A model generated the notes under the pieces. That model did no database searches. It was not told where the DNA came from and saw only the letters and a list, made by a program, of their open reading frames with translations. Of a stretch of DNA of 43,835 nt, positions 5,456 through 31,918 are shown in pieces (position 1 is the stretch's first letter; each line of letters starts with the position of its first letter). This DNA comes from Acidimicrobiales bacterium (lineage in GTDB: Bacteria; Actinomycetota; Acidimicrobiia; Acidimicrobiales; RAAP-2). The DNA lies in assembly GCA_035602795.1 (NCBI GenBank), contig DATNLP010000413.1, positions 1 through 43,835 on the forward strand, given 5' to 3'. The position numbers and the translations under genes were made by a program.

Positions 5456-5489
5456 AGGGACCACGAACCCGATCGGGAGGCGATACGCA

Positions 5490-6038
5490 GTGAGCCCAAG
5501 AAGAGCAATCCGTCGTCCGAGCTGGCTCCGCCACCGGGTGCCGAGCGCCCTGTGCATGACCGCGCTCGGTATCGCCCTGGCCGTCGGGGGCGCATCCGCT
5601 GGCACAGCGTCGGCGTCCACTGGCAACTCCGGCAACACGGGCAACACAGGCTCGGGGAGTGGGGCCGCCGTCGTGACACCGCTGCTGAAATTCTTCGAGT
5701 TCGGCAACACAATCGGCCTCCCCCTGCTGTGCAGCGACGCTGGTTCGATCGTGTCCATTTTCGGGGCCCAGTCGGGTACGGCCGCAGCGACCTCGCTCAT
5801 CGTCACCCAATTGGACAGCGAGTGCTCACAACTCGCCTCTCAGGGCTCGACCTACCTGCAGCAGGCCATCAGCGAGAGTGAGTCCCTGGAGCTGATCAAT
5901 CCCTACGTCGACCCGCTCATCGGCGACCTCTCCACTGGGCTGAGCACCGTCGGCAACCAGTACGGCTCGTCCCTGGCTCCGTTCGGGCCGACGGTTGCCG
6001 GACTCGGCGGCACGGTCGCGTTCTTCGAAGGTACCTGA
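5490..6038 (+). CDS. Secreted small protein, unknown function
   Basis: GTG start preceded by GGGAGG. Signal peptide (ALCMTALGIALAVGGASAGTASA), then a TGNSGNTGNTGSGSG repeat, then a two-Cys globular part. Confidence 0.65.
   Translation: MSPRRAIRRPSWLRHRVPSALCMTALGIALAVGGASAGTASASTGNSGNTGNTGSGSGAAVVTPLLKFFEFGNTIGLPLLCSDAGSIVSIFGAQSGTAAATSLIVTQLDSECSQLASQGSTYLQQAISESESLELINPYVDPLIGDLSTGLSTVGNQYGSSLAPFGPTVAGLGGTVAFFEGT
5619..5663 (+). repeat. In-frame coding low-complexity repeat TGNSGNTGNTGSGSG
   Basis: Same GN[ST]G periodicity as 5114..5170, here immediately after the signal peptide. Confidence 0.8.
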
Positions 6039-6039
6039 G

Positions 6040-6729
6040 GTGCGCGCCCCAGCTCGGGCGCTCTTCGCTGCCGGCCTGACCCTCTCGGCCCTGGGCCTGG
6101 CCGCCTGCGGGGGCCGCTTCGTGAGCCCGCACGACGCCGCCGCCCGGACCACCGTGATCGGGAGTGGACGGACCGTCGCGGACGGCGGGGACTCGACGAC
6201 GCCGACCACCTCGTCGGCCCCGGGGTCCGGCCCGTCGGCCCTGCCGAGCCTTCCCTCGACCGCGAGCCACCCGACGACGGTTCCCACCACGACGCGCGCC
6301 GGGAGCACCGCGAGCGAGGACCCGACCCAAAGGGCGATCATCACTGACTACGAGGCGTATCTGGTCGACCTCTCCGGGCTCGACGACAACCTGAGCAAGG
6401 CCTACGTCGGTCCATTGGCGTCGGTCACCACGAACCGGCTGGCCCAGGCCAGCGTGCGCCAGGCGGCCACCCTGCTGGCTGCGCAGGAGCACGGTGTCGG
6501 GACGCTACGCGACGACCACGTCTCGGTGGTCATGACGGGACCGGCCAGCGCCGCCCTGGCCGATTGCCAGGACGAGGACCACTTCTACCTGGTCAACGAC
6601 AACTCGGGGACACCCGATCCCTTCATCGAACGGGGCTACTTCGTCGGGTCCGCCCAGATGGTGCTCCAGAACGGGCACTGGCTGGTCGACGTGTTCACGA
6701 CGACGCACGTCACCTGCGCTGCCTTCTGA
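6040..6729 (+). CDS. Putative lipoprotein, unknown function
   Basis: GTG at 6040 gives VRAPARALFAAGLTLSALGLAACGG, a lipobox-like LAAC. A Pro/Ser/Thr linker follows, then a ~130-aa globular C-terminal domain. The upstream part of ORF 5995..6729 overlaps the previous gene and was trimmed. Confidence 0.65.
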   Translation: MRAPARALFAAGLTLSALGLAACGGRFVSPHDAAARTTVIGSGRTVADGGDSTTPTTSSAPGSGPSALPSLPSTASHPTTVPTTTRAGSTASEDPTQRAIITDYEAYLVDLSGLDDNLSKAYVGPLASVTTNRLAQASVRQAATLLAAQEHGVGTLRDDHVSVVMTGPASAALADCQDEDHFYLVNDNSGTPDPFIERGYFVGSAQMVLQNGHWLVDVFTTTHVTCAAF

Positions 6730-6733
6730 CGCG

Positions 6734-7699
6734 CTAGGCGGCCGTGCGCAAGGTGGCCCCGATCGACTGGAGCGCCGCGGCGATCTGACCGAGCGCGCCC
6801 GATGGGGCCGACCGGCTCTGCACCCGTGCCTCGTCGGCCAGAGCTGCCTCGGCGTCCACCAGCAGCCCGAGACGGAGGAGCTGCGCCGTCTGCATGCTGC
6901 CGGCCGGAGGGGCGATGGCGCTCACCGCGGTCTCGGCCCGCACGAGGGCATCGGCCATGCGAGCCAGGGACGCGCTGGTCGGCGCCTTCCGGATCAACGC
7001 CTGGCGCACCGACGACTGGGTGGGGAGGTCGGATCGGGCCACGGCGGCGGACCAGCCGGACATCGACTCCGTCCCCACGGCGGCGGTGATCGTGTCGGGC
7101 CAGGACGACACCAGGGGCTCGCCCGGCGCCAGGGCGACGGTGGACCAGACGGGGATGTGCGCCGCCGCCGCCGTATCGGCTCCGGCCACGGTCGAACCGA
7201 GGTCGGGCGCCAGCTGCGCCGTGCCCTGGTCGAATGTGACGTCCCCCAGCTCACGGATGCGCTGGTACGACCGCTGGAGCTGGGTGACGAGCGGACCCGT
7301 GTGGAGCTCGGTCGCCGCCTGCAAGACGCGGAAGGATTCCAGGTAGAGCTCGACGGCCGCCGCGTAGTCGGAGCGGACGCCGGCATAGCCCGACAGCGGC
7401 GCCAGTGACGCCACCTTGTGCTCGACCGCTTCGAGCGTGGGAATGGTCCGGGTCAATGCGCGGCGTGCCGTCGCCCCCGACTCCAAGCCCTGCTGCCACG
7501 ACTGGGCCGCATTCAGGCCCGCCAGGAGATCCGCCTGCAGCGGACTGAGGTCGGTGACGATTGTCTGGTACCAGCTCCGTACTTGTGAAGCGGAGGTGGT
7601 GGGCGCCGAGTCGGCCGGCGCCGAGCTCACTGTCGCACTGGCGCCGAGAACAAATGCCGCAACGAGCGCGACGACCCACCTCTTCCACGTCGCCGTCAC
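6734..7699 (-). CDS. Secreted, predominantly helical protein, unknown function
   Basis: GTG start. Signal peptide WVVALVAAFVLGASATVSSAPA. Ala/Leu/Gln-rich sequence without recognisable catalytic motifs. Lies downstream of the binding-protein gene on the same strand. Confidence 0.6.
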   Translation of the reverse strand: MTATWKRWVVALVAAFVLGASATVSSAPADSAPTTSASQVRSWYQTIVTDLSPLQADLLAGLNAAQSWQQGLESGATARRALTRTIPTLEAVEHKVASLAPLSGYAGVRSDYAAAVELYLESFRVLQAATELHTGPLVTQLQRSYQRIRELGDVTFDQGTAQLAPDLGSTVAGADTAAAAHIPVWSTVALAPGEPLVSSWPDTITAAVGTESMSGWSAAVARSDLPTQSSVRQALIRKAPTSASLARMADALVRAETAVSAIAPPAGSMQTAQLLRLGLLVDAEAALADEARVQSRSAPSGALGQIAAALQSIGATLRTAA

Positions 7700-7790: not shown

Positions 7791-9089
7791 TCAGTTCGTC
7801 TTCGCTACGGAAGTTCCCGGCACCAAGGTCTGGGTCTTGGCGTCGTAGTGATAGATCGTAACCGGGCCGATCGCGTAGGGCTGGCCTGGTGCGAAGGAGA
7901 GGGGGCCGCCTGCCCCGGGGATGCTGGCGTTCTTCAGATCGTAGCCAGCCTTGGTGAAGCTGGCCACGGTCAGGTTCTTACCCGCCGCGTCGGCGATCTT
8001 GACGAAGAGGCCGAGGTACTGGCAGGCCTCGATCACCGACTCGTACGTGGTGTCATTGGTCACCACCGTCGTCTCGGGGTTGGGCGGATTCGAGACCTGG
8101 TCCGACGGGTAGGCCTTTCGGACCTCCGCGGCGCACTTCTGAATGGCCGGGTCCTTCCACTGCTGGTAGGCGGTCGGGGTCGAAGTGGCGGCCAGCGAGT
8201 AGTCCAGGTACGGGTTGCCACCCTTGGTCGACTCGACGTACGAGATGTAGGAGGACTCGCTGGTGGCGATGTACAAGGGCTTGTACTGACTCTGCAGATC
8301 CGCCTGCGCCCGGGGCCACGTGGTCGAGCCGGAGCCGCCGACACCGAGGACCACGTTGATCCCGTCGTTCTGGAACTTCGTCTCAATGGTCTGGGTGTCC
8401 TGGTCGGAGGCGACGGTGTCGGTGGACGGCGCGTTGTCCAGAGCCGTATCCACGAGGTCCACGTGCAACTTGGCGAGATCGGCCTTGACGGCAGACACTT
8501 CCGGGGCGTCCGAGGTGGCGCCGTAGAAGATGCCGACCTTCTTGCCGTTGAATACGCCCAGCTTCTTGAACGCTGCCAGCTGCACGGCGTCGAACGGCGC
8601 GTCGGGCGGGACGATGGCGAAGTCGGGAGCTGAACCGGCCGGCAACGTGCCAGGTAGGGATCCCGCGATCACCGGCGTGTCGTGCGTCGTCTGGTAGCAG
8701 TCCGGGAACACCGGAGAGATGGAGACGAAGACGTGGTCGTCCTCGGTCAGCTGGGTGCAGGAGTTGGCCGCATCCGCCGGCAACGCCGGGTCCATACCCA
8801 CGTTGGCCAGGACCAGCTTGCGCCCGTCGACGCCACCCGCCTTGTTGATACCGGCGATGACGGCGTTGTAGGCATCGACGAAGTTGCCGTCGTTGATGTT
8901 GACGCCGAGGTTCTTGAGCTCGGTAAAATTGACCCAGGGCAGGCCGACAGTGATCGTTGTCTTGGTCACGCCCTGGTCGGCCGGGCTCGTGGCCGCACCG
9001 GCGGGGGCGACCCCGGCGGACACGATCGTGCCTCCCAGAGTGGCGAGGGCTGCGGCCGTCCACAGCACGTTCCGGACGCGCAATTTCAT
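7791..9089 (-). CDS. Secreted ABC transporter substrate-binding protein, type-I (Leu/Ile/Val-binding-like) fold
   Basis: ATG at 9089 gives MKLRVRNVLWTAAALATLGGTIVSAGVAPAGA (signal peptide). ITVGLPW...AGGVDGRKL...VFVSISP is typical of the LivJ/K-type family. It is a paralogue of the decayed gene at 28551..29712. Confidence 0.85.
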   Translation of the reverse strand: MKLRVRNVLWTAAALATLGGTIVSAGVAPAGAATSPADQGVTKTTITVGLPWVNFTELKNLGVNINDGNFVDAYNAVIAGINKAGGVDGRKLVLANVGMDPALPADAANSCTQLTEDDHVFVSISPVFPDCYQTTHDTPVIAGSLPGTLPAGSAPDFAIVPPDAPFDAVQLAAFKKLGVFNGKKVGIFYGATSDAPEVSAVKADLAKLHVDLVDTALDNAPSTDTVASDQDTQTIETKFQNDGINVVLGVGGSGSTTWPRAQADLQSQYKPLYIATSESSYISYVESTKGGNPYLDYSLAATSTPTAYQQWKDPAIQKCAAEVRKAYPSDQVSNPPNPETTVVTNDTTYESVIEACQYLGLFVKIADAAGKNLTVASFTKAGYDLKNASIPGAGGPLSFAPGQPYAIGPVTIYHYDAKTQTLVPGTSVAKTN

Positions 9090-9320
9090 GTGATCTCTCC
9101 CTCGCACTCGCCGGACTCGAGTCACCGAGCCGCGTTTCGCCGTCTGAACATTACGAGAGACCATGCGAAGAAAACCGTCACCGAACTGGTCACTGACCTG
9201 CTCGTTCCGGAACCCGCAGTACGCCCCCCGAAATGCAACCTCAATATATCAACCGGTCGGTACAAAATGCAAGGCACTTCTCCGTCACCGGTAACGGCGT
9301 TTCTGCAAACGGCTACGCCG

Positions 9321-9338
9321 TAACCTGACATTTGTTCC
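9321..9338 (-). promoter_or_regulatory. Box A: TAACCTGACATTTGTTCC (minus strand reads GGAACAAATGTCAGGTTA), candidate operator
   Basis: Exact reverse complement of the 18-mer at 13217..13234. Lies in the 282-bp divergent region between the binding-protein gene and the tandem TetR gene, 34 nt upstream of the TetR ATG. Confidence 0.6.
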
Positions 9339-9371: not shown

Positions 9372-10616
9372 ATGCCGTCCGAAGGAGCCCGCCGGGAAGA
9401 GATACTTCAGACAGCGGGCACGCTCTTCGCATCCTCGGGCTTGCGGACCTCCCTCAACGAGATCGCCGACGCCTGCGGCATCCTCCCGGGCAGCCTCTAC
9501 CACCACTTCGAATCCAAAGAAGCGATCATCGTCGAGTTGGTGCAGCGCTACGAGGACGACCTCACGCGCATCGCCAAGGAAGCGCGCGACACCCTGCACG
9601 AGCCGACGCCCCGGTCGCTTGAAGCACGGGTGATCGAGTTCGGCCGCGCCATCGCCGCCGTCGGCCTCGAGCACCGGGCCGCACTCCTCCTCACGCTGTA
9701 CGAGCCGCCGGTGGGGGCGGGCCAGGAGTCCGGCCATGCCCTCAAGTCACCCCCGGCGATCCACCAAGCCATGCAGGAGATTCTGCAAGCCGGTCTCGCC
9801 AACGGCGACGTGCGGTCGGGGATCGATCTCTCTTTGCTCTCCGATCGAATGTGCCTCAGCATGCTGCACGTCGGCGTCGGCATCTCCCATCTCACGCCTG
9901 GGGGTGACGTCGTCCCGGACACGAGGATCCGCATCCTGCTGGACGGGCTGGCGGCCAAGCCTCCATCGAACGCCGCGCTCGACCGCTCGACCGCACTCAA
10001 GGCGGCCCAAGCTGCCATCGTCTCCTGGGGCGAAGAAGGTGCGGACGACGACGAGCGCCTCGTGCACCTGCGCGCGGTAGCGCGCACTGAGTTCGGACGG
10101 CGCGGGTACGAAGCGACCACCATGCGAGACATCGCGTCGGCCTCCGGCTTCAGCACCGGCACGGTCTATCGGTTGCTCGGCTCTAAGGACCAGTTGCTGA
10201 TCTCCGTCATGTCGTCGTACGTCGACAAGGTCAGCCGCGCATGGGATGCGGTCGTCCGCTCTGATTCGACGCCGCTCACCAAGATCGACGCATTGATGTG
10301 GGTCACCATCAACGTGCTCGACACCCTCAGCGAGGAGTTCAAGATCACGCTGGCCTGGCTGCGCCAGTCCCCGCCGAGCAGCGCCCCGGCGCTCGGGATG
10401 TCCTTCCCCGAACAATTGCGCCACGTCCGCACGCTTCTCACCACGGGGACGCGCGACGGAGTGATTCAGTTGGAAGGCGCGTCCGCCGAAATCAGGGCCC
10501 GCTGCGTCCTCGAAGCGATCTGGGGTGCCGGTTCCCACGTCACGGAACTCTCGCCAAAGGAATCTCACGCATTGGCCCGCGACACCGTGCTGCGCGGGGC
10601 GGCCACCCACGCTTGA
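9372..10616 (+). CDS. Tandem-duplicated TetR/AcrR family regulator (two HTH-plus-ligand modules in one 414-aa chain)
   Basis: HTH 1: REEILQTAGTLFASSGLRTSLNEIADACGILPGSLYHHFESKEAII. HTH 2 starts near residue 225: LRAVARTEFGRRGYEATTMRDIASASGFSTGTVYRLLGSKDQLL. The protein is about twice the normal TetR length. Confidence 0.85.
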   Translation: MPSEGARREEILQTAGTLFASSGLRTSLNEIADACGILPGSLYHHFESKEAIIVELVQRYEDDLTRIAKEARDTLHEPTPRSLEARVIEFGRAIAAVGLEHRAALLLTLYEPPVGAGQESGHALKSPPAIHQAMQEILQAGLANGDVRSGIDLSLLSDRMCLSMLHVGVGISHLTPGGDVVPDTRIRILLDGLAAKPPSNAALDRSTALKAAQAAIVSWGEEGADDDERLVHLRAVARTEFGRRGYEATTMRDIASASGFSTGTVYRLLGSKDQLLISVMSSYVDKVSRAWDAVVRSDSTPLTKIDALMWVTINVLDTLSEEFKITLAWLRQSPPSSAPALGMSFPEQLRHVRTLLTTGTRDGVIQLEGASAEIRARCVLEAIWGAGSHVTELSPKESHALARDTVLRGAATHA

Positions 10617-10653: not shown

Positions 10654-12384
10654 GTGAGTGAGCCGAAGACACCCGGTCCGGAACGGCTGAAGCTGTTGGC
10701 CTCCGCCGTCGCGGGCCGACCGGTCACCGTGGCCGCTCTCCACCCACCCGGAACGGCTGCCTGGACGGATGGGACGACCGTCTTCGTCGATCCCGCGGCG
10801 GCGACGCGCGAGCAGGTCCGATACGTCGCAGTCCAGGCCGCACTCCTGTCCTCGGGCAGCCTCGACGCCGAATTCCTGAGCGCAATAGCACGTCGGCCGG
10901 CCCTCTGCCGGAGGTACCTGGCTGTGGAAGGTCACCGGGCCCTGGCCGCTCACCAGGACCTGCTCCCCCCGAGCGCACGGCTCTTGATCGATCGCCGGAT
11001 GGCAGCCCGCAGCGGGTCGCCGGCCCAATCCCTCGCCATCGCCATGAGCCGCGAGGTGGTTGCGGATGCTCCACACTCCTTCGGCACGATTCGACCCCGC
11101 CGGTTGCGCTCGGACTTGGGCAAGTCGGCGGAGACCAACGCAGCCGCCCAACACGTCCCGAGACAGACCGACGCCCATCTCCTACGAGAGCTCGACGACG
11201 AGGAGGACGATGGTGGCGCTCTCTTCGACACCGTCTCGAGCCCGGTCGGCGGGGGCGGCGGCATCGGCCGGCTCATCAAGAGGCTGATCGGCGACGCGCG
11301 CTCGGGCGATGGTGGTCCGCCCGGGGCGGACGCCGTCACGCATAGGTCTCGCCGTGGTGGCGGTCGGCCGGCCGCCGGCACCATGACGACAGCCATCACC
11401 TCCATCACGGACTCAATGGAGGACGCGGCCCATCGGGAATGGACCTACCCCGAGTGGGATCTGCACCGGCACCGCTACCGCCAGGACTGGTGCACGGTCA
11501 GCGAATCCGAGCCGGCGGCGGCCAAGCTCGCTCCGTTCGAACTCGCCGACACGCACTCGCTGCGCCGAGCACTGGCCCGGTTGGGCCGGGAGTGGCAACG
11601 GCGTCCGCGACAGCTACAGGGCATCGACATCGACATCGACGCCGCCGTGGCAGCGTACGTCGATGTGGTCGCAGGATCGCCTCCAGCTGAGGAGGTTTAC
11701 ATTGACATCCTGCGGCAGCGCCGCGATCTCGCCGTGCTGATCCTGCTCGACATCTCAGGGTCGGCTGGGGAGCCGAGCCCGTCGGGCGGCATGGTGCACG
11801 ACCATCAGCGGGCCGCCGCGGCGGCGCTCGTCCGGTCGATGCACGATCTGGGTGACCGCGTGGCCCTCTATTCCTTCTGCTCCCAGGGACGGACAGCGGT
11901 GCACGTGGTGCCGATGAAGCAGTTCCGCGAAAGCCTCGAGACCAGGGTGCTGCAGCGACTTGGCGGCACCTCTCCCGGGGCATATACCCGGCTCGGCGCG
12001 GCCATCCGCCATGGGTCGGCGGTGGTCGAGCGCGACGGCGGCACGACGAGGCGATTACTCGTCGTCCTATCGGACGGGTTCGCCTACGACCACGGCTACG
12101 AGGGCGCCTACGGAGAGGCCGACGCGCGGCGCGCGCTGGCGGAAGCCCGAAGAAGGGGAACGGCGTGCCTCTGCTTGAGCATGGGCGCTCCGACCGATAC
12201 GGAGGCGCTACGGAGGGTTTTCGGAACGGCCGCGCACGCCCGCGTTCCGCGGGTCGAGGACTTGCCGGCGATGGTCGGTCCACTGTTCGGGTTCGCCCTC
12301 AGGTCGGCGGAAGCCCAGCAGCGGACGTTCCAGCGCAAACTCCGGACAAAGGAGCGTCTCGAGGTCGAAAGGAGGACGGCATGA
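10654..12384 (+). CDS. vWA-domain protein, NorD/CbbO-like partner of a MoxR-class ATPase
   Basis: C-terminal vWA domain with MIDAS DxSxS (LILLDISGSAGE) and LLVVLSDG. Long helical N-terminal region. GTG at 10654 follows AAGAAGGG. ATGA overlap with the downstream AAA+ gene. Confidence 0.8.
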   Translation: MSEPKTPGPERLKLLASAVAGRPVTVAALHPPGTAAWTDGTTVFVDPAAATREQVRYVAVQAALLSSGSLDAEFLSAIARRPALCRRYLAVEGHRALAAHQDLLPPSARLLIDRRMAARSGSPAQSLAIAMSREVVADAPHSFGTIRPRRLRSDLGKSAETNAAAQHVPRQTDAHLLRELDDEEDDGGALFDTVSSPVGGGGGIGRLIKRLIGDARSGDGGPPGADAVTHRSRRGGGRPAAGTMTTAITSITDSMEDAAHREWTYPEWDLHRHRYRQDWCTVSESEPAAAKLAPFELADTHSLRRALARLGREWQRRPRQLQGIDIDIDAAVAAYVDVVAGSPPAEEVYIDILRQRRDLAVLILLDISGSAGEPSPSGGMVHDHQRAAAAALVRSMHDLGDRVALYSFCSQGRTAVHVVPMKQFRESLETRVLQRLGGTSPGAYTRLGAAIRHGSAVVERDGGTTRRLLVVLSDGFAYDHGYEGAYGEADARRALAEARRRGTACLCLSMGAPTDTEALRRVFGTAAHARVPRVEDLPAMVGPLFGFALRSAEAQQRTFQRKLRTKERLEVERRTA

Positions 12385-13190
12385 CTTCTGGACCCCGGCC
12401 CTACTACGTCCCGGTCGGAGATGAGGAGGCCGTCTTTGCGGCCGCGTTCCGCCAAAGCCTGTCGATCCTCCTGAAAGGGCCCACGGGCTGTGGCAAGACG
12501 CGTTTCGTCGAAGCCATGGCGTACGACCTGCAGCGTCCGCTCATCACAGTCGCCTGCCACGACGACTTGACGACGGCGGATCTGGTGGGCCGCTTCCTTC
12601 TGCGGGGCGGCGAGACCACCTGGGTCGACGGACCACTGACGCGAGCGGTCCGGGAGGGCGCCATCTGCTACCTCGACGAAATCGTCGAGGCGCGCCAGGA
12701 CACGACCGTGGTCCTCCATCCACTGACGGACCACCGCCGCCAGATGCCGATCGATCGCCTCGGCGTCACACTCGAGGCCGCACCGGGTTTCTGCCTCGTC
12801 GTGTCCTACAACCCGGGCTACCAGAGCGTCCTCAAGGATCTGAAGGACTCGACCCGACAGCGCATGATCGCCATCGAGCTCGATTTTCCGCCAGCCGACG
12901 TCGAGGAGAAGGTCGTGGCGCACGAGGCCGGCGTGGACCACCAGACGGCGTCACTCCTGGTGGGGCTCGGGCGGGCCATCCGGCGTCTCGAGAACGTCGG
13001 ACTGCGTGAGGTGGCCTCGACCCGACTGCTGGTTGCCGCGGGCCGGTTGGTCCAACAGGGCCTGGGCCTCCCTACGGCGGCGCGGGCGGCGGTCGCCGGG
13101 CCGCTCACGGACGATCCTGTGGTGACGGCGGGACTGATTCAGATGATCGACGCCTACTGCGAGGACCAACCCGCCGGGCCGGACGATTGA
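12381..13190 (+). CDS. AAA+ ATPase of the CbbQ/NirQ/NorQ/GvpN (MoxR) family
   Basis: SILLKGPTGCGKTRFVEAMA (Walker A), AICYLDEIVEA (Walker B), LVVSYNPGYQ, about 269 aa. This is the typical size and motif order for the family. Confidence 0.9.
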   Translation: MTSGPRPYYVPVGDEEAVFAAAFRQSLSILLKGPTGCGKTRFVEAMAYDLQRPLITVACHDDLTTADLVGRFLLRGGETTWVDGPLTRAVREGAICYLDEIVEARQDTTVVLHPLTDHRRQMPIDRLGVTLEAAPGFCLVVSYNPGYQSVLKDLKDSTRQRMIAIELDFPPADVEEKVVAHEAGVDHQTASLLVGLGRAIRRLENVGLREVASTRLLVAAGRLVQQGLGLPTAARAAVAGPLTDDPVVTAGLIQMIDAYCEDQPAGPDD

Positions 13191-13216
13191 CGCTGGTGGG
13201 CCTGGTCGCTAAGGTC

Positions 13217-13234
13217 GGAACAAATGTCAGGTTA
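13217..13234 (+). promoter_or_regulatory. Box B: GGAACAAATGTCAGGTTA, candidate operator
   Basis: Identical 18-mer to box A (opposite orientation). Lies 20 nt upstream of the GTG at 13254, in the 63-nt gap after the MoxR gene. Confidence 0.6.
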
Positions 13235-13253: not shown

Positions 13254-14390
13254 GTGGTTGCTCGACAAGGGGGGCGCGTGTCCTACGTCAGTACCGCCGA
13301 ACCGATCAAGATCGGGTACCTGTTCGACTTCAAGCTCCCTGAGGGCTATCCCCAGGAGTCTCGCGACGACCTGGTGCTCCCCTTCGAGCTCGTCTTCAAG
13401 CAGGGCCTCGAGCAAGGGGTTCTCGACCGCCCGGTGGAGATCGTGTTCCGCGAGGTCGAAGGCCTACCCAAGGGCACCATAAAAGCCGTGATCGATGCCT
13501 ACGGCGAGCTGGTCGACGAGGGTTGCCTCGTCGTCTTCGGCCCGGCCATCACCGACAACTGCGTGCCGACCCGCGAGGCGATCGAGGAGCGCTTTCGCGT
13601 GCCGGCCATCAGCGTGACGGGCAGCGAGGAGTGGCTGGGCGAGTGGACGTTCGCCCTGTCCATGGGCTCGATGACCGACGAGCCCATCTTCTGGGCCGAC
13701 CTGCTCGTCAAGGACGGCCACCGCGAGGTCGGGCTCCTGATCGAGCGGTCACTGGTCGGTGACTCCTACGTGCGCAACTTCCGCAAGGCGTGTGCCGACC
13801 GCGACATACGGATCGTGGCGGAGGAATGGGTCCCCCAGACGGCTCAGGACATCAGCACGTCCGTGCGCAACCTGCACGAGGCCAAAGCCGAGGCGATTGT
13901 GCATTGCGGCTTCGGTTTCGGCATCGTCTTCGTCAACCCGACGCTGGCGGAAATGAACTGGAATCCTCCTCGATACATGGGCACGGCGTTCCAGAACGCC
14001 TGGATCAACCAACTGATGTGGGATGCCATCCGGGGCTACACGGGGCTGGACCAGTACGACGAGTCGAACCCGGTCGGGCAGGCCTTCCTCGACGAGTACA
14101 ACGTGGCCTATGGGCGTCGGCCGGAGTACTGCGTTCCCGTGGTCAACCGCGACATCGCGACCATTTTGCTGCTCGCCCTGGCGGACGCACATCCCCTCAC
14201 TCCGCGTGGGGTGAAGGAGGCCCTCGAGCGGGTGAAGATGGTCCCCGCCGCCTCCGGTGCTCCTGGGACCCGGCTTTCCTTCGGTAGGTGGACGCGCCGA
14301 GGCTGGATGGGCGCCGGCTATCTCGTGGCGCGCCAGCTGGATGAGGAGTTCGGCTCGTCGCACCTCGTCGGCCGCTTCGGGCAAGTCTGA
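13254..14390 (+). CDS. Type-I periplasmic-binding-protein-fold protein without a signal peptide (predicted cytoplasmic ligand-binding protein)
   Basis: IKIGYLFD...VVFGPAITDN...VGLLIERSLVGDSY...IVHCGFGFG follows the LivK/AmiC-type fold pattern. The N-terminus MVARQGGRVSYVSTAEP has no hydrophobic leader or lipobox. Confidence 0.8.
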   Translation: MVARQGGRVSYVSTAEPIKIGYLFDFKLPEGYPQESRDDLVLPFELVFKQGLEQGVLDRPVEIVFREVEGLPKGTIKAVIDAYGELVDEGCLVVFGPAITDNCVPTREAIEERFRVPAISVTGSEEWLGEWTFALSMGSMTDEPIFWADLLVKDGHREVGLLIERSLVGDSYVRNFRKACADRDIRIVAEEWVPQTAQDISTSVRNLHEAKAEAIVHCGFGFGIVFVNPTLAEMNWNPPRYMGTAFQNAWINQLMWDAIRGYTGLDQYDESNPVGQAFLDEYNVAYGRRPEYCVPVVNRDIATILLLALADAHPLTPRGVKEALERVKMVPAASGAPGTRLSFGRWTRRGWMGAGYLVARQLDEEFGSSHLVGRFGQV

Positions 14391-14393: not shown

Positions 14394-15545
14394 GTGACGA
14401 CCCAGCTGGAGCGAGCGGAACAAGTCACTACCGACGAACCCTCTGCCGCGACGACGGCAACGAAGTCGACCCGCTCGGGCATCGCCTGGGGCTTGATCGG
14501 CTGCGCGGTGGCCCTGCTGCTCATCTTCATCGCGCACAATGCCCGCCGTGGCGCCGTCGTCGCACGCATCAAGAACGCTGCCGTGCAGGGCGCACCACGT
14601 CCGGTCAGGCCATTGTTCGGCTGGACCCACTGGTTGGGGTTCCTCCAGGTCAGCACGATCATCTCCATGGCGGTGATCGTGGTGGTCTTCGTCGTGCTGT
14701 GGCGGCGGCACCCGAAGCACCCGGTCTTGCTCATGGCGATCGCGTGCACCACGCTCGTCTGGCAGGACCCGATCATGAACTGGTCCCCGTACGCGGTGTA
14801 CAACCCGCAGCTATGGCACTGGCCCGAGTCCTGGCCGCTTGTCTCGCTCTCGCCGACGGTCGAACCCTTCGTCGTGATCGGCTACGTGATGTTCTACCTG
14901 GTCCCCGGATTGATCGGCATCTGGGCCCTCCAGCGCATCCAGCAGCGAAAGCCAGTCACGTCCTTTGTCTGGCGTCATCCGCTCGTCACCCTGGCCCTCC
15001 TGATCTACCCGATCGGATTCATTTACGACGCCATCCAGGAGATCATCCTCATCCGGACCGGCATGTACACCTACTCGCAGGTGATCCCGTTCGGGTCCGT
15101 CTTCGTCGGCAAGCAGTACCAGTTCCCCCTCATTTGGGAGTCGTCACTCGTGACCGCCGTCATGATCCCCGCCGGCGTGCTCCTCTACCGCGACGACACC
15201 GGCAAGACCGTGGCGGAGAAACTGGCCCAACGGGTGCGGTCGTTCCGCGGGCGTCCGGCGCTCGGCACCTTCGTCGTCATGGCCCTGATCCTCAACGCTT
15301 GCTACTTCTTCCTGTACGGCGGCGGGTTCGCCATCATCAAGGACACCGGCGTGGCCACCTCAGTCGCCTGCCCGTGGCCCTACCCCGAAGCGAAGGTCTA
15401 TGACCCACAGGGCTTCTACGAGAAAGCGGGAGCAACCGGGCCGTACTCCGTGGGAATCTGGAGCGGCTGGGAGATGGCGCAATCAGGTCGTCCGGACATC
15501 AGCCCGCCCGTTGGCGGAGGCCCCTGCAGCACGGCACACGGCTGA
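14394..15545 (+). CDS. Polytopic (about 7 TM) Trp-rich integral membrane protein, unknown function
   Basis: Hydrophobic segments include GIAWGLIGCAVALLLIFIA, ISMAVIVVVFVVLW, FVVIGYVMFYLVPGLIGIWAL and FVVMALILNACYFFLYGGGF. Starts 3 nt after the preceding stop. I have a weak recollection of resemblance to proteins annotated as AveC family, which I cannot verify here. Confidence 0.7.
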   Translation: MTTQLERAEQVTTDEPSAATTATKSTRSGIAWGLIGCAVALLLIFIAHNARRGAVVARIKNAAVQGAPRPVRPLFGWTHWLGFLQVSTIISMAVIVVVFVVLWRRHPKHPVLLMAIACTTLVWQDPIMNWSPYAVYNPQLWHWPESWPLVSLSPTVEPFVVIGYVMFYLVPGLIGIWALQRIQQRKPVTSFVWRHPLVTLALLIYPIGFIYDAIQEIILIRTGMYTYSQVIPFGSVFVGKQYQFPLIWESSLVTAVMIPAGVLLYRDDTGKTVAEKLAQRVRSFRGRPALGTFVVMALILNACYFFLYGGGFAIIKDTGVATSVACPWPYPEAKVYDPQGFYEKAGATGPYSVGIWSGWEMAQSGRPDISPPVGGGPCSTAHG

Positions 15546-15558: not shown

Positions 15559-16329
15559 TCAGGGATTCAGCTGACCGCTCGGGCGCACCACGATCTCGTG
15601 GATGCAGATCCCGTCCGGCCGGCTCATGACGAACGTGATGCAGTCGGCCAACTCTTCGGGTGCGGCCGGCACGCCCCCCTCGACGAAGAACGGGGTGTCG
15701 GTCGGTGGGATGTCGCCGTCCATGATGAGTCCCTCCATGGTGAGACCCTCGGTGTCGAACATCCCGGGCATGACGAGACTGACGTTGATGCCCTGGGGTG
15801 CCAGTTCGATGCGCAACGTATCGAAGGCCGCCTCTAGACCGCGCTTCGAGGCGGCGTAGATGCCGACGCCGGACATGGGCGTCAAGGCACCGGTCGATCC
15901 CACCAGGATGACGTCGCGCCGGCCCGCGCTCGAGAAGTGGGGCAAGGCGTAGCGGACCGTCGCCAGCGGACCGAGCAGGTTCAGTTCGATGAGCTCACGC
16001 CATCGCTGCGGGGTCCCGGTCGCCACCGTCCCGGTCATCATCGCCCCCGCCACCGAGACGACACCGTCGAGGTCGCCGAGCTGGCGAGCGGCGTCGGTGA
16101 CCCTCTCGTCCAGCGTCTCGAGGTCGGTCACGTCGCAGGCCACCCAGACGGCACGGTCCCCGAGTTCCTCGGCCAGCGCGCCGAGGCGCTCCTTCCGCCG
16201 GGCCAGCATGGCGACCGATCCGCCCTGGGCGACGATCGACCGGCAGGTGGCCGCCCCGATCCCACTCGATGCGCCAGTCACGAGGACGCGCCGGCCGCTC
16301 AGGTCAACGAGCACGCTCATGAACAACAC
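15559..16329 (-). CDS. Short-chain dehydrogenase/reductase (SDR)
   Basis: VLVTGASSGIGAAT (TGxxxGxG), NLLG, and YAASK (catalytic YxxxK). An alternative ATG start lies at 16320. Confidence 0.9.
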   Translation of the reverse strand: MLFMSVLVDLSGRRVLVTGASSGIGAATCRSIVAQGGSVAMLARRKERLGALAEELGDRAVWVACDVTDLETLDERVTDAARQLGDLDGVVSVAGAMMTGTVATGTPQRWRELIELNLLGPLATVRYALPHFSSAGRRDVILVGSTGALTPMSGVGIYAASKRGLEAAFDTLRIELAPQGINVSLVMPGMFDTEGLTMEGLIMDGDIPPTDTPFFVEGGVPAAPEELADCITFVMSRPDGICIHEIVVRPSGQLNP

Positions 16330-16434: not shown

Positions 16435-16451
16435 GAACAAATATTAGGTTA
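16435..16451 (+). promoter_or_regulatory. Box C: GAACAAATATTAGGTTA, candidate operator (2 mismatches to boxes A/B)
   Basis: Lies 14 nt upstream of the P450 GTG, in the divergent SDR/P450 intergenic region. The flank TCGCCGG also resembles the box B flank GCGCCGG. It contains a TANNNT-type hexamer, TAGGTT. Confidence 0.5.
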
Positions 16452-16464: not shown

Positions 16465-17724
16465 GTGAAATTGGCAGGCAAAGGTCCAGACACAGGAGCC
16501 GCGGTCGACCTCGAAGGCGCCGACGCCGACAACGACGAGTTCGGCCTGTTCGACGACGCCGTGGCGGGCGACGCCCGGGATCCCTACCCCGAGCTGGCCC
16601 AGGCTCGTCGCGATACCCCGATCCAGATCCTGGACGCCTCGTTGATGCCACACGACGACGCGCATCCGGTCTACTTCATCTACCGCCACGACGACATCGC
16701 CGCCATTCTCCGAGACGGCGAGACCTTCTCCTCGGCCCACATCATCGACCTGATCATGGGACCGGTCATGGGCGAGCACATCATGCTGGGCATGGACGAC
16801 CCGCAGCACCGCCGCTACCGGGCACTGGTGACCACTGCGTTCCGCCAGAAGGTGCTCGCCACGTGGGAGACCGATCTGGTCGCCAAGGTGGTCAATGACC
16901 TCATCGACCGATTCGTCGATCGCGGTCACGCCGAGTTGGTCCGCGAGTTCACGTTCCCGTACCCGACCCAGATCATCGCCGGCCTCCTCGGCCTGCCGCG
17001 GCAGGACTACAAGCGGTTCCAACGCTGGTCCATCGCCATTCTCAGCTTCCTCAGCAAGCCGGAGGAAGCGATCGCCGCGTCGCAGGAAGTGAAGGAGTAC
17101 ATCGCCGACATCCTGGAGGAACGGCGCCAGACGCCTGCCCAGGACCTGATCAGTGACCTAGCCCGGGCCGAACTGGACGGCGAGCACCTGAGCGACGAGG
17201 AGATCTTCTCGTTCCTCCGGCTTCTGCTGCCTGCCGGGGTCGAGACCACGTTTCGCGCCACGGGGAACCTGCTCTTCTCGCTGCTCTCCCATCCGGACCA
17301 GCTCGACGCCGTCCGGGCCGACCGCCGCCTCATCCCGCAAGCGATTGAGGAGGCGCTCCGCCTCGAGACGCCGCTGCTCAACATCACCCGCTTGGCCACC
17401 AAGGACACGGAGATCGACGGCGTGTCAATTGAGGCCGGCTCGACCGTGATGCTCATGCTGGCAGCGGCCAACCGGGACGAGAACCGCCACGACGACCCCG
17501 ACGCCTTCGACATCTTCCGGAGCGATCCGAAGCCGCATATCTCCTTCGGACATGGGCCCCACATGTGTCTCGGCGTGCACCTGGCCCGGATCGAGATGCG
17601 GGTCGCCCTTGATCACTTGCTCGACCGCCTCCCCAACCTGCGCCTCGACCCGGCTGCGGTCGATCCGCACATCCGGGGCCAGGTGTTCCGGTCCCCCACC
17701 GACCTGCCGGTCCTCTTCGGATGA
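16465..17724 (+). CDS. Cytochrome P450
   Basis: ExxR (EEALRLETP) and heme-thiolate loop FGHGPHMCLGVHLAR. GTG at 16465 follows GGAAGG. The 5' part of the long ORF 15937..17724 is antisense to the SDR gene and was trimmed. Confidence 0.92.
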   Translation: MKLAGKGPDTGAAVDLEGADADNDEFGLFDDAVAGDARDPYPELAQARRDTPIQILDASLMPHDDAHPVYFIYRHDDIAAILRDGETFSSAHIIDLIMGPVMGEHIMLGMDDPQHRRYRALVTTAFRQKVLATWETDLVAKVVNDLIDRFVDRGHAELVREFTFPYPTQIIAGLLGLPRQDYKRFQRWSIAILSFLSKPEEAIAASQEVKEYIADILEERRQTPAQDLISDLARAELDGEHLSDEEIFSFLRLLLPAGVETTFRATGNLLFSLLSHPDQLDAVRADRRLIPQAIEEALRLETPLLNITRLATKDTEIDGVSIEAGSTVMLMLAAANRDENRHDDPDAFDIFRSDPKPHISFGHGPHMCLGVHLARIEMRVALDHLLDRLPNLRLDPAAVDPHIRGQVFRSPTDLPVLFG

Positions 17725-17762: not shown

Positions 17763-19049
17763 ATGCACATTGACGACCTCATCCTCGTCTCCGTCGACGA
17801 CCACGTCGTCGAACCGAAAGACATGTTCGAGGGTCACATCCCGGCCAAGTACAAGGACCAGGCGCCGAAAGTGATCGTCAAGGACGACGGCACCGACGCC
17901 TGGGTGTTCGAAGGGCAGGAGGCCACCAACGTCGGGCTGAACGCCGTGGCAGGCCGGCCCCCCGACGAGTACGGCATCGAACCGACCCGATTTCGCGAGA
18001 TGCGGCCCGGCTGCCACGACATACACGAGCGCATCCGCGACATGAACGCGAACGGCGTGCTCGCCTCGCTGAACTTCCCGTCCTACCCGCAGTTCTGCGG
18101 CCAGTACTTCGCCCGGGCGACCGACAAGGACCTGGCCATCGCCGTGCTGCGCGCCTACAACGACTGGCACGTGGACACATGGTGCGGGACCTACCCGGGA
18201 CGTATGATCCCCCTCGCGCTCCCGCCGATCTGGGACGTTGAGCTGATGGCGGACGAGGTGCACCGCGTGGCGAAGAAGGGCTGCCACGCCGTCACCTTCT
18301 CGGAGAACCCCGAGAAACTCGGCTACCCCTCCTTGCACAATGAGCACTGGGACCCGTTCTGGACCGCATGCAGCGAGGAGAACACCGTCGTCTGCCTGCA
18401 CATCGGGTCGTCGTCGCAGGTTGTGGTGACGTCGATCGAGGCACCAATCGACACGCTGATCACTTTGCAGCCGATCAACATCGTCCAGGCGGCGGCCGAT
18501 CTGCTGTGGTCGCCGGTGCTACGGAAATTCCCCGACATCACGTTCGCGCTCAGCGAGGGAGGAATCGGATGGATCCCCTACTTCCTCGAGCGGGTGGACA
18601 ACGTCTATAAGCACCACCGGGCCTGGACCCACCAGAACTTCGGTGACAAGTTGCCGAGCGAGGTCTTCTCGGAGCGGATCGTAACCTGCTTCATCGACGA
18701 CGCCTTCGGGATTGAGGTCCGGGACAAGCTCAACGTCGACATGATCACCTGGGAGTGCGACTACCCCCACTCCGACTCTGTCTGGCCCGAGTCGCCGGAA
18801 GTGCTGGCCGAGTATCTCGTCGGCGTGCCGACCGAGGAGGTGGCGAAGATCACGCACGAAAACGCTCTGCGAGTCTTCTCCTTCGACGCGTTCGCACATG
18901 TGCCGAAGAGCGTGGCCACCGTCGGCGCCCTGCGGGCCCAGGCTACCGACGTCGACCTGGGCTACCGCTCCTCGGCCCGTCTCAAGAAGACGGGCACCGA
19001 CACCGTCAGCGTGCTCAGCCTGGCCAGCACCTTGTCGCCGGCCAGCTGA
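17763..19049 (+). CDS. Amidohydrolase-2 (ACMSD-like, metal-dependent TIM-barrel hydrolase/decarboxylase) family protein
   Basis: LILVSVDDHVVEP start motif, FSENP, and WECDYPHSD near the C-terminal metal-site region. About 428 aa, typical of the actinobacterial family. Confidence 0.85.
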   Translation: MHIDDLILVSVDDHVVEPKDMFEGHIPAKYKDQAPKVIVKDDGTDAWVFEGQEATNVGLNAVAGRPPDEYGIEPTRFREMRPGCHDIHERIRDMNANGVLASLNFPSYPQFCGQYFARATDKDLAIAVLRAYNDWHVDTWCGTYPGRMIPLALPPIWDVELMADEVHRVAKKGCHAVTFSENPEKLGYPSLHNEHWDPFWTACSEENTVVCLHIGSSSQVVVTSIEAPIDTLITLQPINIVQAAADLLWSPVLRKFPDITFALSEGGIGWIPYFLERVDNVYKHHRAWTHQNFGDKLPSEVFSERIVTCFIDDAFGIEVRDKLNVDMITWECDYPHSDSVWPESPEVLAEYLVGVPTEEVAKITHENALRVFSFDAFAHVPKSVATVGALRAQATDVDLGYRSSARLKKTGTDTVSVLSLASTLSPAS

Positions 19050-22439: not shown

Positions 22440-22508
22440 GTGCCTCCGATCACGCCCGCGCCGGGCTGCTGCCGCAAATGCTGTGCGACTGCTTAGCACG
22501 CTGCGGTA

Positions 22509-31377: not shown

Positions 31378-31898
31378 CGGCGGTCGTCCTCGTGGGCCTC
31401 ATGGGAGCGGGAAAGTCCTCCGTCGGCTCGGTGGTCGCGGCCCGCATGGGCGTGACGTTCGTCGATGTCGATGTCGCCATTGTCGGAGGGACCGGAAAGA
31501 CAGTGCGCGAGCTCTGGGAGCAAGGCGGTGAGCCGGCTTACCGATACCTGGAGTCGAAAGTCGTGCTCGACACGTTGGCCGAAGAGCGGGACGTGGTCCT
31601 GGCGGCGCCCGGCGGCGTCGTCCTCGACCCGGCGGTGCGGGCCGCCCTGGCCGATGCCTTTGTGGTCTGGCTCCGCACCGATCCGGCAACCCTCGCGAGT
31701 CGTGTGCGACTCGACGACCATCGTCCGTTGTTGGGCGCGCACCCCCGGGACGTGCTCACCACCATGGAACATGAGCGTTCCGGGGTTTACGAAGGACTTG
31801 CCGATCTCGTGATCGACACCGATCACGAAGATGTCGAGACGATCGCCGGCCGCATCGTCAGAGCGCTCGACGACCGGACATCGCCCGGCCGACCGTAG
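31374..31898 (+). CDS. Shikimate-kinase-family (AroK-like) P-loop kinase, paralogue embedded in the uronate operon
   Basis: VLVGLMGAGKSSVG (P-loop), FVDVDVAI..TGKTV.ELW...GEPAYRYLE, VLAAPGGVV (AroK has TGGG), HRPLL. 174 aa. GTGA overlap with the uxaC stop. Confidence 0.85.
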   Translation: MTAVVLVGLMGAGKSSVGSVVAARMGVTFVDVDVAIVGGTGKTVRELWEQGGEPAYRYLESKVVLDTLAEERDVVLAAPGGVVLDPAVRAALADAFVVWLRTDPATLASRVRLDDHRPLLGAHPRDVLTTMEHERSGVYEGLADLVIDTDHEDVETIAGRIVRALDDRTSPGRP

Positions 31899-31918
31899 AC
31901 AGGCAAAAGGGGAGAATC

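Follow-up and report, generated by a model that had tools for sequence, protein, structure and literature searches.

A NorQD-type AAA+/vWA gene pair linked to an AveC-like membrane protein in a TetR-associated oxidation cluster of Actinomycetota

To our knowledge, only a few clients are known for MoxR machines of the CbbQ/NorQ type, mainly RuBisCO, a soluble enzyme which is served by the activase CbbQ/CbbO, and nitric oxide reductase, where NorQ/NorD acts on the membrane-embedded NorB. A MoxR ATPase and a vWA protein are also combined in CoxD/CoxE/CoxF, where they mature a metalloenzyme, the CO dehydrogenase. Two further described systems resemble neighbours of the gene pair reported here. AveC of Streptomyces avermitilis functions in the avermectin cluster and is not known to rely on an AAA+/vWA pair there, and proteins of the AmiC type are LivJ-fold proteins lacking a signal peptide, which work inside the cell together with an antiterminator.

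The locus was analyzed within a stretch of 43.8 kb (in the following, the window). Its central genes are:

10654-12384, forward strand: NorD-like vWA adaptor, 576 aa, with a GTG start at 10654 and a TGA stop at 12384
12381-13190, forward strand: CbbQ/NorQ-type MoxR AAA+ ATPase, 269 aa, with an ATG start and a TGA stop
13278-14390, forward strand: PBP-like protein, a cytoplasmic binding-protein homologue of 370 aa (Pfam Peripla_BP_6, type-1 PBP/LivJ fold)
14394-15545, forward strand: AveC-like protein, 383 aa, with approximately seven TM helices (PF17198, formerly DUF5135), put forward here as client or partner of the two preceding chaperone-type proteins (vWA and AAA+)

A check of the ORFs and the sequence confirmed the vWA/AAA+ pair, its coordinates and its ATGA overlap, all of which had been given in a preliminary description of this DNA. 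The overlap of the vWA stop with the ATPase start occupies 12381-12384, an AGGAGG is found 8 nt 5′ of the ATPase ATG, and 37 nt lie between the end of a gene for a double TetR (9372-10616) and the vWA start.

According to its sequence, the ATPase is a member of the CbbQ/NorQ/NirQ/GvpN (CGN) clade of MoxR AAA+ ATPases, with a hexameric state and an ATPase activity stimulated by the vWA partner being predicted. Pfam assigns an AAA_5 core (115 bits) followed by a CbbQ_C C-terminal domain (90 bits); this architecture and the length of the protein fit the clade, whose members have approximately 260-270 aa. The protein aligns over its full length with NorQ in the PDB (9qhd_A, E 3e-97; 9qh4_A, E 4e-95) and is likewise close to the CbbQ structures (5c3c, E 1e-86; 6l1q, E 2.5e-86). 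The alignments to NorQ and CbbQ place the Walker A motif at GPTGCGKT, the Walker B motif at CYLDE and the helix-2-insert at GRFLLRGGETT; the latter corresponds to the pore-insert motif GRxLL/IxxxxT that contacts the finger of NorD (PMC13036017). A cysteine in the P-loop and a second one 22 residues further on reproduce the spacing of C46 and C68 in PdNorQ (PMC13036017). In NCBIfam TIGR02640, the model for GvpN, the ATPase scores 77.8 bits and stays below the cut-off, which is 266.8. An anti-phage MoxR/vWA conflict system was also considered and rejected, as the PADLOC defence models yielded only P-loop-level IetA matches (≤25 bits) for the ATPase, and the vWA, PBP-like and AveC-like proteins gave no match.

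The vWA protein begins with an N-terminal domain and linker (residues 1-256); the TYPEWD motif and the finger region come next, and the C-terminal part is a VWA domain, for which Pfam reports VWA (39.7 bits), VWA_2 and VWA_CoxE (29.4 bits). Its MIDAS (LLDISGSAGE) is complete, with D366, S368, G369, S370, T445 and D474 being invariant in 26 homologues. A profile search aligned residues 257-545 with residues 349-641 of NorD (9qhd_G, E 2e-54), so that TYPEWD motif, finger region, VWA domain and MIDAS are all shared with NorD. Both parts of the preliminary assignment, a genuine NorQ/CbbQ-type MoxR ATPase and a NorD-like vWA partner, are thus supported by Pfam and by the PDB alignments. In contrast to this shared half, residues 1-256 could not be aligned to NorD (9qhd_G or 9qh6_G), neither by single sequence nor by profile, and the profile retrieved no other solved protein for them either. 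Within its own family this half is nevertheless conserved, including in a relative of 39% identity, and one conserved segment of its linker, GGGGxIGRLLKRLL, is basic and amphipathic. As the counterpart of residues 1-256 in NorD is the target-side domain with its linker, a family-specific domain at this position points to a putative new target. [quoted passage not shown]

Concerning the other known pairs, the likeness to CbbQ/CbbO lies in the ATPase clade and in the logic of an ATPase with a vWA adaptor. CbbO, however, is larger than the adaptor found here, and neither the window nor the related loci offer a RuBisCO or carboxysome context. The resemblance to the Cox system consists, beyond the general pairing, of the weak VWA_CoxE match; unlike CoxD, the ATPase belongs to the CbbQ/NorQ type with its CbbQ_C domain. 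Pfam scans of the ORFs called in the window revealed no genes for COX1/NorB, RuBisCO or CO dehydrogenase (seven window ORFs gave no match at all, and ORF 7791-9164 only a sub-threshold one to Peripla_BP_6), in line with the earlier statement that no known client is encoded there. Likewise, no nor, cbb or cox genes were present among the conserved neighbours of the pair in 80 related loci.

These 80 loci constitute the main family and originate from two classes of Actinomycetota (Acidimicrobiia, Mycobacteriaceae, Aldersonia and Pseudofrankia); 67 of them could be evaluated. The pair had been described as an orphan, which was not borne out, since it has strongly conserved partners. The AveC-like gene accompanies it in 64 of the 67 evaluable loci, the PBP-like gene in 63, a P450 gene (P450a) in 51 and an amidohydrolase gene in 11. 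A gene-neighbourhood comparison, which the preliminary description had proposed, revealed the colinear order vWA, AAA+, PBP-like, AveC-like in 58/67 loci, with independent gene calls and Pfam annotation in agreement. The four genes are tightly spaced and show median identities of 54-79% between the classes. An apparent PBP-AveC fusion (an 811-aa ORF in L028) proved to be an artefact, caused by a frameshift in a long-read MAG.

The PBP-like protein has no signal peptide, and most of the homologues listed are 370 aa long and start with MSYES. At a median of 69%, its identity between the classes is unusually high, and its gene is tightly coupled to the AveC-like gene, with a gap of typically 1-7 nt in the related loci. 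Its AF2 model (pLDDT 82) matched LivJ-type and aromatic-acid binding proteins in Foldseek (E 1e-19 to 1e-13). As these matches are generic (13-18% identity), no ligand could be inferred from the fold. LivJ fold, missing signal peptide and intracellular location are shared with AmiC-type homologues; AmiC, however, is paired with an antiterminator and the PBP-like protein with a membrane protein.

This membrane protein, the only one within the conserved core, matches PF17198 with 243 bits (Pfam cut-off 26.6) and belongs to the same family as the spirocyclases AveC and MeiC of avermectin and meilingmycin. The context differs from theirs, as it consists of a catabolic-type P450/SDR/ALDH cluster with an AAA+/vWA pair: neither the window nor the recurring gene families of the 80 main loci include PKS genes, and P450, SDR and ALDH genes are the neighbours. 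The AF2 model contains seven long helices but is of mediocre quality (pLDDT 64); all Foldseek matches to this model stayed at E 0.9 or worse, and a sequence search of the PDB gave no match. Features of haem-copper oxidases are lacking. Close orthologues hinted at a di-iron-like site (H142, E145, E157, H195, D212, E216, E249). This candidate was dropped, as family-wide only D125, H142 and D337 are invariant polar residues, among which no multi-ligand metal site is recognisable. By the positive-inside rule, a conserved RDDTG loop is predicted to be cytoplasmic and the family hallmark loops to face outward, away from a cytoplasmic chaperone. The loops predicted on the cytoplasmic side span residues 103-110, 186-195 and 265-287, RDDTG included. 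Acidic surface residues of NorB have been proposed to bind the MIDAS of NorD (PMC13036017), and by analogy the RDDTG loop is a possible counterpart of them.

More distant AveC-like relatives (28-49% identical) provided six informative contexts, with five others left out because their contigs were too short. In four of the six, a CbbQ-type AAA+ gene lies at most two genes away from the AveC-like gene, in four further gene orders:

L083: AveC → vWA → AAA → GMC oxidoreductase
L084: TetR → AveC → AAA
L089: AveC → TetR → AAA → vWA N-terminal domain
L090: vWA ← AAA ←, divergent from → AveC-like paralogue → AveC

Three of these four also show the vWA partner, recognised by the N-terminal domain specific to this family, and in none of the four did the recovered stretch include a PBP-like gene. 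The order adaptor before ATPase, usual in this family in distinction to NorQD and emphasized in the preliminary description, holds for the window but does not define the family, since in L089 and L090 the AAA+ gene comes first and the vWA gene second. In the two remaining contexts, L088 (M. vanbaalenii) and L091 (M. branderi), the AveC-like gene adjoins P450/SDR/ALDH genes, and no AAA+/vWA genes occur within 9 kb. A plasmid collection contained one weak AveC-family match, with AAA+/vWA genes absent nearby.

Around the four-gene unit, the window contains a regulator, repeated boxes and several genes for oxidative enzymes:

9324-9338, reverse strand: box copy 1, GGAACAAATGTCAGG, an exact 15-mer and candidate operator in the divergent region between the upstream binding-protein gene PBP0 (reverse) and the double TetR gene (forward)
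9372-10616, forward strand: fused double TetR (TetR2), 414 aa with two TetR_N stretches (Pfam), the candidate repressor of the cluster
13187-13215, forward strand: promoter-like element read from the sequence, TTGACG (13187-13192), a 17-nt spacer and TAAGGT (13210-13215), followed by box copy 2
13217-13231, forward strand: box copy 2, GGAACAAATGTCAGG, an exact 15-mer before the PBP-like gene
15559-16329, reverse strand: SDRa, short-chain dehydrogenase (Pfam adh_short), with an orthologue of 63-99% identity in Acidimicrobiia loci
16435-16448, forward strand: box copy 3, the variant GAACAAATATTAGG, located 17 nt 5′ of the P450a start
16465-17724, forward strand: P450a (Pfam p450), a conserved cluster member
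17763-19049, forward strand: Amidohydro_2 protein (Pfam), accessory
19082-20005, forward strand: SDRb, short-chain dehydrogenase (Pfam), frequent (41/67 loci)
21138-22499, reverse strand: P450b, CYP150 family (PDB 6dcd, CYP150A6, E 1e-173), in 35/67 loci

The box, written as GAACAAAT(A/G)T(C/T)AGGT, is the candidate target of the double TetR; for a degenerate pattern of the box, 0.16 matches would be expected by chance. The box family is found 189 times in 77 of the 80 related loci and never in shuffled loci; 38 copies lie before the vWA unit, 51 before the PBP/AveC unit and 18 are oriented upstream of P450a. The 15-bp box is conserved between Acidimicrobiia and Mycobacteriaceae, hence across both classes, and marks promoters. 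TAnnnT is located 1-4 nt upstream of the box in 128 of 192 copies, of which 118 also have TTGACG 16-19 nt further upstream, and in Acidimicrobiia and mycobacteria the spacer between the AAA and PBP genes shows this layout as well. In the window its TTGACG overlaps the stop codon of the ATPase gene; a scan with the E. coli consensus did not call the element. A homologue of the double TetR is encoded within 10 kb in 54/67 evaluable loci, and we infer that it binds the box and represses the cluster. The shared-box co-regulation suggested earlier stands for TetR2/PBP0, the PBP-like gene and P450a, but the box does not directly precede the amidohydrolase or the second P450. A pathway substrate could not be deduced from the P450s, with P450b belonging to the CYP150 family and P450a having its closest solved structures only at about E 1e-71. 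The CYP150 literature did not yield this cluster context, and no description of the system was found under AveC-like proteins, DUF5135, NorQ/NorD in mycobacteria or MoxR neighbourhoods.

Taken together, we see about an even chance that the vWA/AAA+ pair works as a NorQD-type machine whose dedicated target is the AveC-like 7-TM protein, within a TetR-controlled P450/SDR/ALDH oxidation cluster. The machine would consist of a hexameric ATPase ring and one adaptor with its finger in the pore, and the adaptor's own N-terminal domain would suit it to the new target. This target would most likely be the AveC-like protein, encoded two genes downstream and probably in complex with the translationally coupled PBP-like protein. 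By analogy with NorQD, the machine would again act from the cytoplasmic side on an integral membrane protein, with the N-terminal domain, linker and MIDAS of the adaptor contacting cytoplasmic surfaces of the AveC-like protein. ATP would then power its remodelling, its loading with a cofactor or metal, or its activation or resetting. The unit as a whole may serve a catabolic-type oxidation cluster (P450s, SDRs, ALDH) for a hydrophobic substrate, which the fused double TetR would repress via the box at the promoters of the vWA/AAA+, PBP/AveC-like and P450 units. One argument for the AveC-like client is that its linkage to AAA+/vWA genes survives gene rearrangement in distant relatives; others are the co-regulation by the box and its being the sole membrane protein of the conserved core. 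Against it count the AveC-like genes of L088 and L091 with no AAA+/vWA genes nearby, the avermectin AveC that is not known to have such a pair, the absence of a recognisable metal site, the mediocre AF2 model with no structural neighbour, the outward-facing hallmark loops, and that the linkage evidence is all genomic. The clients suggested earlier (amidohydrolase, P450s, binding protein) did not include the AveC-like protein, which is now the best candidate.

Within the main family the linkage of the PBP-like protein is almost equally strong, so it or its complex with the AveC-like protein could be the direct target. The stronger version, in which the PBP-like protein alone is loaded or unloaded with a ligand or metal, or remodelled, and the AveC-like protein is merely its membrane partner, is considered quite unlikely. 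It would fit a soluble and, like the chaperone, presumably cytoplasmic protein of unusual conservation whose gene directly follows the ATPase gene in most loci, and the binding-protein homologue proposed earlier is indeed conserved in the main family. Against it stand the four rearranged contexts, where the AveC-like gene lies beside AAA+/vWA genes and no PBP-like gene appears in the stretch recovered; moreover, a PBP-like gene also occurs with an AveC-like and a P450 gene where AAA+/vWA genes are absent nearby. Another idea dispenses with maturation: vWA, AAA+, PBP-like and AveC-like proteins might form a membrane device for uptake, extraction or sensing of a hydrophobic substrate, which is driven by the AAA+ motor and hands the substrate to the P450s. 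The colinear and conserved four-gene unit, the predicted pairing of a ligand-binding fold with a 7-TM protein, the amphipathic stretch in the vWA linker and the lipid-type oxidation genes as neighbours would all agree with such a device. We nevertheless hold it to be rather improbable, as in most loci the box separates the vWA/AAA+ from the PBP/AveC transcription unit, the stretches recovered for the rearranged relatives contain no PBP-like gene, and we know of no MoxR/vWA system that acts as a motor of this kind.

That a soluble enzyme of the island (P450, Amidohydro_2 or dehydrogenase) is the client, by insertion of a metal or cofactor or by activase-like removal of an inhibitor, appears very unlikely. 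CbbQO is a precedent for this type of machine acting on a soluble enzyme, P450a shares the box, and P450 genes also lie near the AveC-like genes of L084, L088, L090 and L091. Yet the P450s are frequent without being universal: CYP150 reaches only about half of the evaluable loci, and L083 and L089 combine AveC-like and AAA+/vWA genes with no P450 in the stretch recovered. P450s are not known to require chaperones of the MoxR/vWA type. The amidohydrolase, given its rarity, is a poor candidate. Finally, an ordinary NorQD or CbbQO pair, with the genes of its nitric oxide reductase or RuBisCO at another site of the genome, would account for the high similarity of the ATPase to NorQ and for JGI and NCBI naming some of the homologues NorD. 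The N-terminal half unrelated to NorD, the lack of nor, cbb and cox genes in the window and among the conserved neighbours, and the synteny with other genes across two classes make this extremely unlikely.

For PF17198, the linkage offers a functional lead, the first one beyond pathways of the avermectin type. A bolder proposal, which we regard as rather doubtful, is that the PF17198 proteins of Actinobacteria form a novel class of membrane enzymes or substrate handlers for hydrophobic compounds, whose active state has to be built or reset by a dedicated NorQD-type AAA+ machine; in that case they would be just the second client of this machine type located in the membrane, and one unrelated to respiration. 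Alternatively, the AAA+, vWA, PBP-like and 7-TM proteins would form a new ATP-driven device feeding membrane-dissolved substrates to P450 pathways. How the N-terminal half of an adaptor selects its target is a wider question, on which this large conserved family, where the N-terminal half differs and a candidate client is at hand, has a bearing. The public NorD labels on these proteins are misleading where denitrification potential is inferred from metagenomes. The double TetR and the box, from Acidimicrobiia to Mycobacteriaceae, define a regulon for a widespread uncharacterised oxidation pathway of soil Actinobacteria. The family comprises 507 relatives in GTDB contigs with one genome per species, with culturable mycobacteria such as Mycolicibacterium agri, M. 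moriokaense and M. arenosum among the carriers. As a side observation, the distant locus L088 also contains a gene for a 1172-aa AMP-binding/PP-binding/reductase protein.

The vWA protein and the CbbQ/NorQ-type AAA+ ATPase are encoded behind a double TetR gene, and ORF calls together with Pfam bear out the close pairing, the overlap at a shared ATGA and the 37-nt gap that had been reported in the preliminary description. The genes considered here are:

9372-10616, + strand: double TetR ORF with two TetR_N domains (Pfam), ending 37 nt 5′ of the vWA start
10654 (GTG) to 12384 (TGA), + strand: vWA ORF, 576 aa; Pfam VWA, VWA_2 and VWA_CoxE
12381 (ATG) to 13190 (TGA), + strand: AAA+ ORF, 269 aa; Pfam AAA_5 and CbbQ_C
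13278-14390, + strand: PBP-like protein, a cytoplasmic binding-protein homologue
14394-15545, + strand: AveC-like membrane protein (PF17198)
16465-17724, + strand: P450a
17763-19049, + strand: amidohydrolase (Amidohydro_2)
19082-20005, + strand: SDRb
21138-22499, − strand: CYP150-type P450

An AGGAGG lies 8 nt 5′ of the ATPase ATG. The window has a GC content of 64-71%, and its closest relatives are Acidimicrobiaceae MAGs, with a protein identity of 98% in the loci L001 and L006. Its called ORFs include ABC/Liv-type transporters, binding proteins, P450s, SDRs, Amidohydro_2 and a sugar-acid cluster by Pfam content. Pfam scans of these ORFs, seven of which had no match, turned up no nor, cbb or cox genes, in line with the earlier claim that the window holds no such client.

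Databases contain more than 3,000 relatives of the vWA protein, the closest 120 of which have 57-98% identity along the whole length. Scanning GTDB with a single genome per species gave 507 relatives, and the best 80 of these 507 loci, from Acidimicrobiia, Mycobacterium/Mycolicibacterium/Mycolicibacter, Aldersonia and Pseudofrankia, were compared with the window proteins by tblastn, the 67 loci with at least 4.5 kb downstream being evaluable.

Window genes in the 67 evaluable loci (loci; median identity)
AAA+: 67/67; 79%
AveC-like: 64/67; 64%
PBP-like: 63/67; 69%
Double TetR: 54/67; 50%
P450a: 51/67; 62%
SDRb: 41/67; 70%
CYP150-type P450: 35/67; 49%
Amidohydrolase: 11/67; 83%

The genes are colinear as vWA-AAA-PBP-AveC in 58 of the 67 loci (18/24 Acidimicrobiia and 40/43 others), so that the pair is not the orphan it had been taken for. 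A public gene set, called independently and carrying precomputed Pfam domains, agrees with this layout. By spacing, the four genes form two tight pairs, vWA/AAA with a 4-nt overlap in most Acidimicrobiia, and PBP-like/AveC-like with a gap of typically 1-7 nt in Acidimicrobiia and other loci alike. In de novo clustering of neighbours in the 80 loci, none of the nor, cbb or cox families recurred; newly found were a 326-aa SDR and an aldehyde dehydrogenase, both 3′ of the AveC-like gene in mycobacteria. One locus (L060, DOUU01000019.1) is filed as 'Deltaproteobacteria bacterium UBA9160'; as it is a 6-kb contig carrying an actinobacterial-type cluster, this label probably reflects a binning error.

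With 473 representatives at E ≤ 1e-3 among 1.84 billion, the AveC-like proteins form a small family. Distant members, 28-49% identical, were looked up, and six contexts were long enough to judge.

Contexts of distant AveC-like relatives (gene order; AAA+/vWA)
L083: AveC-like, vWA, AAA+, GMC oxidoreductase, with overlapping stops and starts; yes
L084: TetR, AveC-like, AAA+ (61%); AAA+ only
L089: AveC-like, TetR, AAA+, ORF matching the vWA N-terminal domain; yes
L090: vWA and AAA+ (75%; AAA+ first), divergent from a putative tandem of AveC-like genes; yes
L088 (M. vanbaalenii): AveC-like beside P450, SDR and PBP-like genes; none within 9 kb
L091 (M. branderi pJCM12687): AveC-like beside P450, ALDH and alcohol dehydrogenase genes; none within 9 kb

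[quoted passage not shown] As the linkage survives four further gene orders and the family-specific vWA N-terminal domain is retained, the partner indicated is the AveC-like protein, and this is the strongest evidence obtained here.

In L090 the putative AveC-like tandem is followed 3′ by acyl-CoA dehydrogenase, P450, enoyl-CoA hydratase, acyl-CoA synthetase, GMC oxidoreductase and ALDH genes. A 286-aa membrane protein without Pfam match (8144-9004 of L090) overlaps the AveC-like start and by eye looks like a short divergent AveC-like paralogue (ELPFEIVANHTGVYTYYGQQP cf. DAIQEIILIRTGMYTYSQVIP); if so, the AveC-like subunits there would be in tandem. Paralogues of the AveC-like and PBP-like genes recur right beside P450 genes with SDR/ALDH/ECH (L088, L091, L019, L015), even with no AAA+/vWA nearby, which suggests a general tie of PF17198 to P450-based oxidation clusters in mycobacteria. 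Several cluster genes are frameshifted in long-read MAG contigs (L028, L089, L090 and other MFD/ERZ records), including a split AAA+ and a split vWA gene; an 811-aa PBP-AveC 'fusion' in L028 was dismissed as such an assembly artefact, and fusions or truncations in these records are not reliable at face value.

Alignments spanning the whole ATPase were obtained with solved NorQ (9qhd_A, E 3e-97; 9qh4_A, E 4e-95) and CbbQ structures (5c3c, E 1e-86; 6l1q, E 2.5e-86); against the GvpN model the protein falls short (77.8 bits, cut-off 266.8). It carries Walker A GPTGCGKT, Walker B CYLDE and the helix-2-insert GRFLLRGGETT, a motif which in NorQ grips the NorD finger (PMC13036017). A P-loop Cys and a second Cys 22 residues on are spaced as in PdNorQ C46/C68, the pair forming an inhibitory disulphide (PMC13036017). 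The vWA protein aligns with NorD only at residues 257-545 (E 2e-54, profile of 26 homologues), a stretch comprising the TYPEWD motif, the finger region and the MIDAS-bearing VWA domain. No match was found for residues 1-256, which are well conserved within the family (LLASAIAGR, WTDG, VQAxLL, RRYLAVEGHRAL, GGGGxIGRLLKRLL). The motor and motor-binding half are thus NorQD-like, whereas the target side differs. In the vWA linker (residues about 190-215) an acidic run, LRELDDEEDD, precedes a Gly-rich basic amphipathic stretch, SSPVGGGGGIGRLIKRLIGD; both are near-invariant in the family, the latter being recognisable even in the 39%-identical L083 protein, and this element could bind a membrane or a partner.

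The AveC-like protein matches PF17198 with 243 bits, and its AF2 model (pLDDT 64) has seven long helices; no solved structure resembling it was found by sequence or fold search. A low-confidence topology from the positive-inside rule, N-in/C-out, would place loops 103-110, 186-195 and 265-287, the last with the family-wide RDDxG motif, in the cytoplasm, and the hallmark loop 125-158 (D125, H142), loop 222-245 and a Cys-containing C-terminal tail outside. The PBP-like protein, 370 aa in most homologues listed, begins with MSYES; as it has no signal peptide and its model, of good quality (pLDDT 82), adopts a LivJ-type Venus flytrap fold, it is predicted to be an intracellular ligand binder.

Of the readings considered, the one with most support has a NorQD-type machine redirected to the AveC-like membrane protein, perhaps together with the PBP-like one. 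By analogy to NorQD and NorB, the pair would act on the AveC-like protein from the cytoplasm, within a putative TetR-controlled oxidation pathway for a hydrophobic substrate. Candidate effects are metal or cofactor insertion, activation or reset, and caution on this chemistry is warranted since the AveC-like protein lacks a clear metal-ligand set. Alternatively, the PBP-like protein could be the direct client, its gene following that of the ATPase in most loci; against this, no PBP-like gene was found in the recovered stretch of L083, L084, L089 or L090. A soluble enzyme could also be the client, such as P450a, which shares the box and lies in 51 of the 67 loci. The preliminary description had sought the client among the amidohydrolase, the P450s and the binding-protein homologue; the distant contexts point to the AveC-like protein instead. 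A further rival to a maturation factor is a working four-protein membrane device, which the colinear order would also fit. An ordinary NorQD acting in trans is very unlikely, being opposed by this conserved colinearity and by vWA residues 1-256, which are not NorD-like. Membership in a defence system was rejected.

The shared box noted earlier was recovered as well: the window holds two exact copies of GGAACAAATGTCAGG, at 9324-9338 (−) and 13217-13231 (+), and a variant at 16435-16448. The 15-bp consensus, GAACAAAT(A/G)T(C/T)AGGT, matches nearly letter for letter between Acidimicrobiia and Mycobacteriaceae, and 189 boxes were found in 77 of the 80 loci (shuffled sequence: 0), oriented upstream of PBP-like (51), vWA (38), P450a (18) and luciferase-like oxidoreductase (9) genes. 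In the AAA-to-PBP spacer of Acidimicrobiia and mycobacteria the box directly follows a TAnnnT hexamer, with TTGACG 17-18 nt further upstream; in the window TTGACG contains the ATPase stop codon, the whole element spanning 13187-13231. Both hexamers are present at 118/192 boxes. A promoter scan with an E. coli consensus did not call these promoters, as expected for TAnnnT-type -10 elements. The box lacks palindromic symmetry, as would fit a fused double TetR binding as a pseudo-dimer; this protein is the obvious candidate for the box binder.

A literature search found no paper describing the cluster, and public records name its proteins 'NorD', 'Mg-chelatase subunit ChlD', 'ABC transporter substrate-binding protein' and 'spirocyclase AveC family protein'. 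The type of motor and adaptor is known, whereas the target side and the conserved uncharacterised partner are new.

Elsewhere in the window, two unusual fused transporter ORFs lie on the − strand, one of 960 aa (23289-26171; Liv-type permease BPD_transp_2, ABC ATPase domain and BCA_ABC_TP_C) and one of 718 aa (26171-28327; MFS_1, then ABC ATPase domain). Four ORFs at 4037-7699 (472, 182, 229 and 321 aa), which show a coding-type GC3 bias and lack Pfam matches, sit between the genes for ABC ATPases and the one for the upstream binding protein; they occur only in the three closest relatives. The right third (30136-43833) is an unrelated sugar-acid/hexuronate-type cluster encoding glucuronate isomerase, a shikimate-kinase-like protein, GH2, a mannitol dehydrogenase family member, a Lar_N protein, a xylose-isomerase-like TIM barrel, FGGY kinase, a LacI regulator and GHMP kinase.
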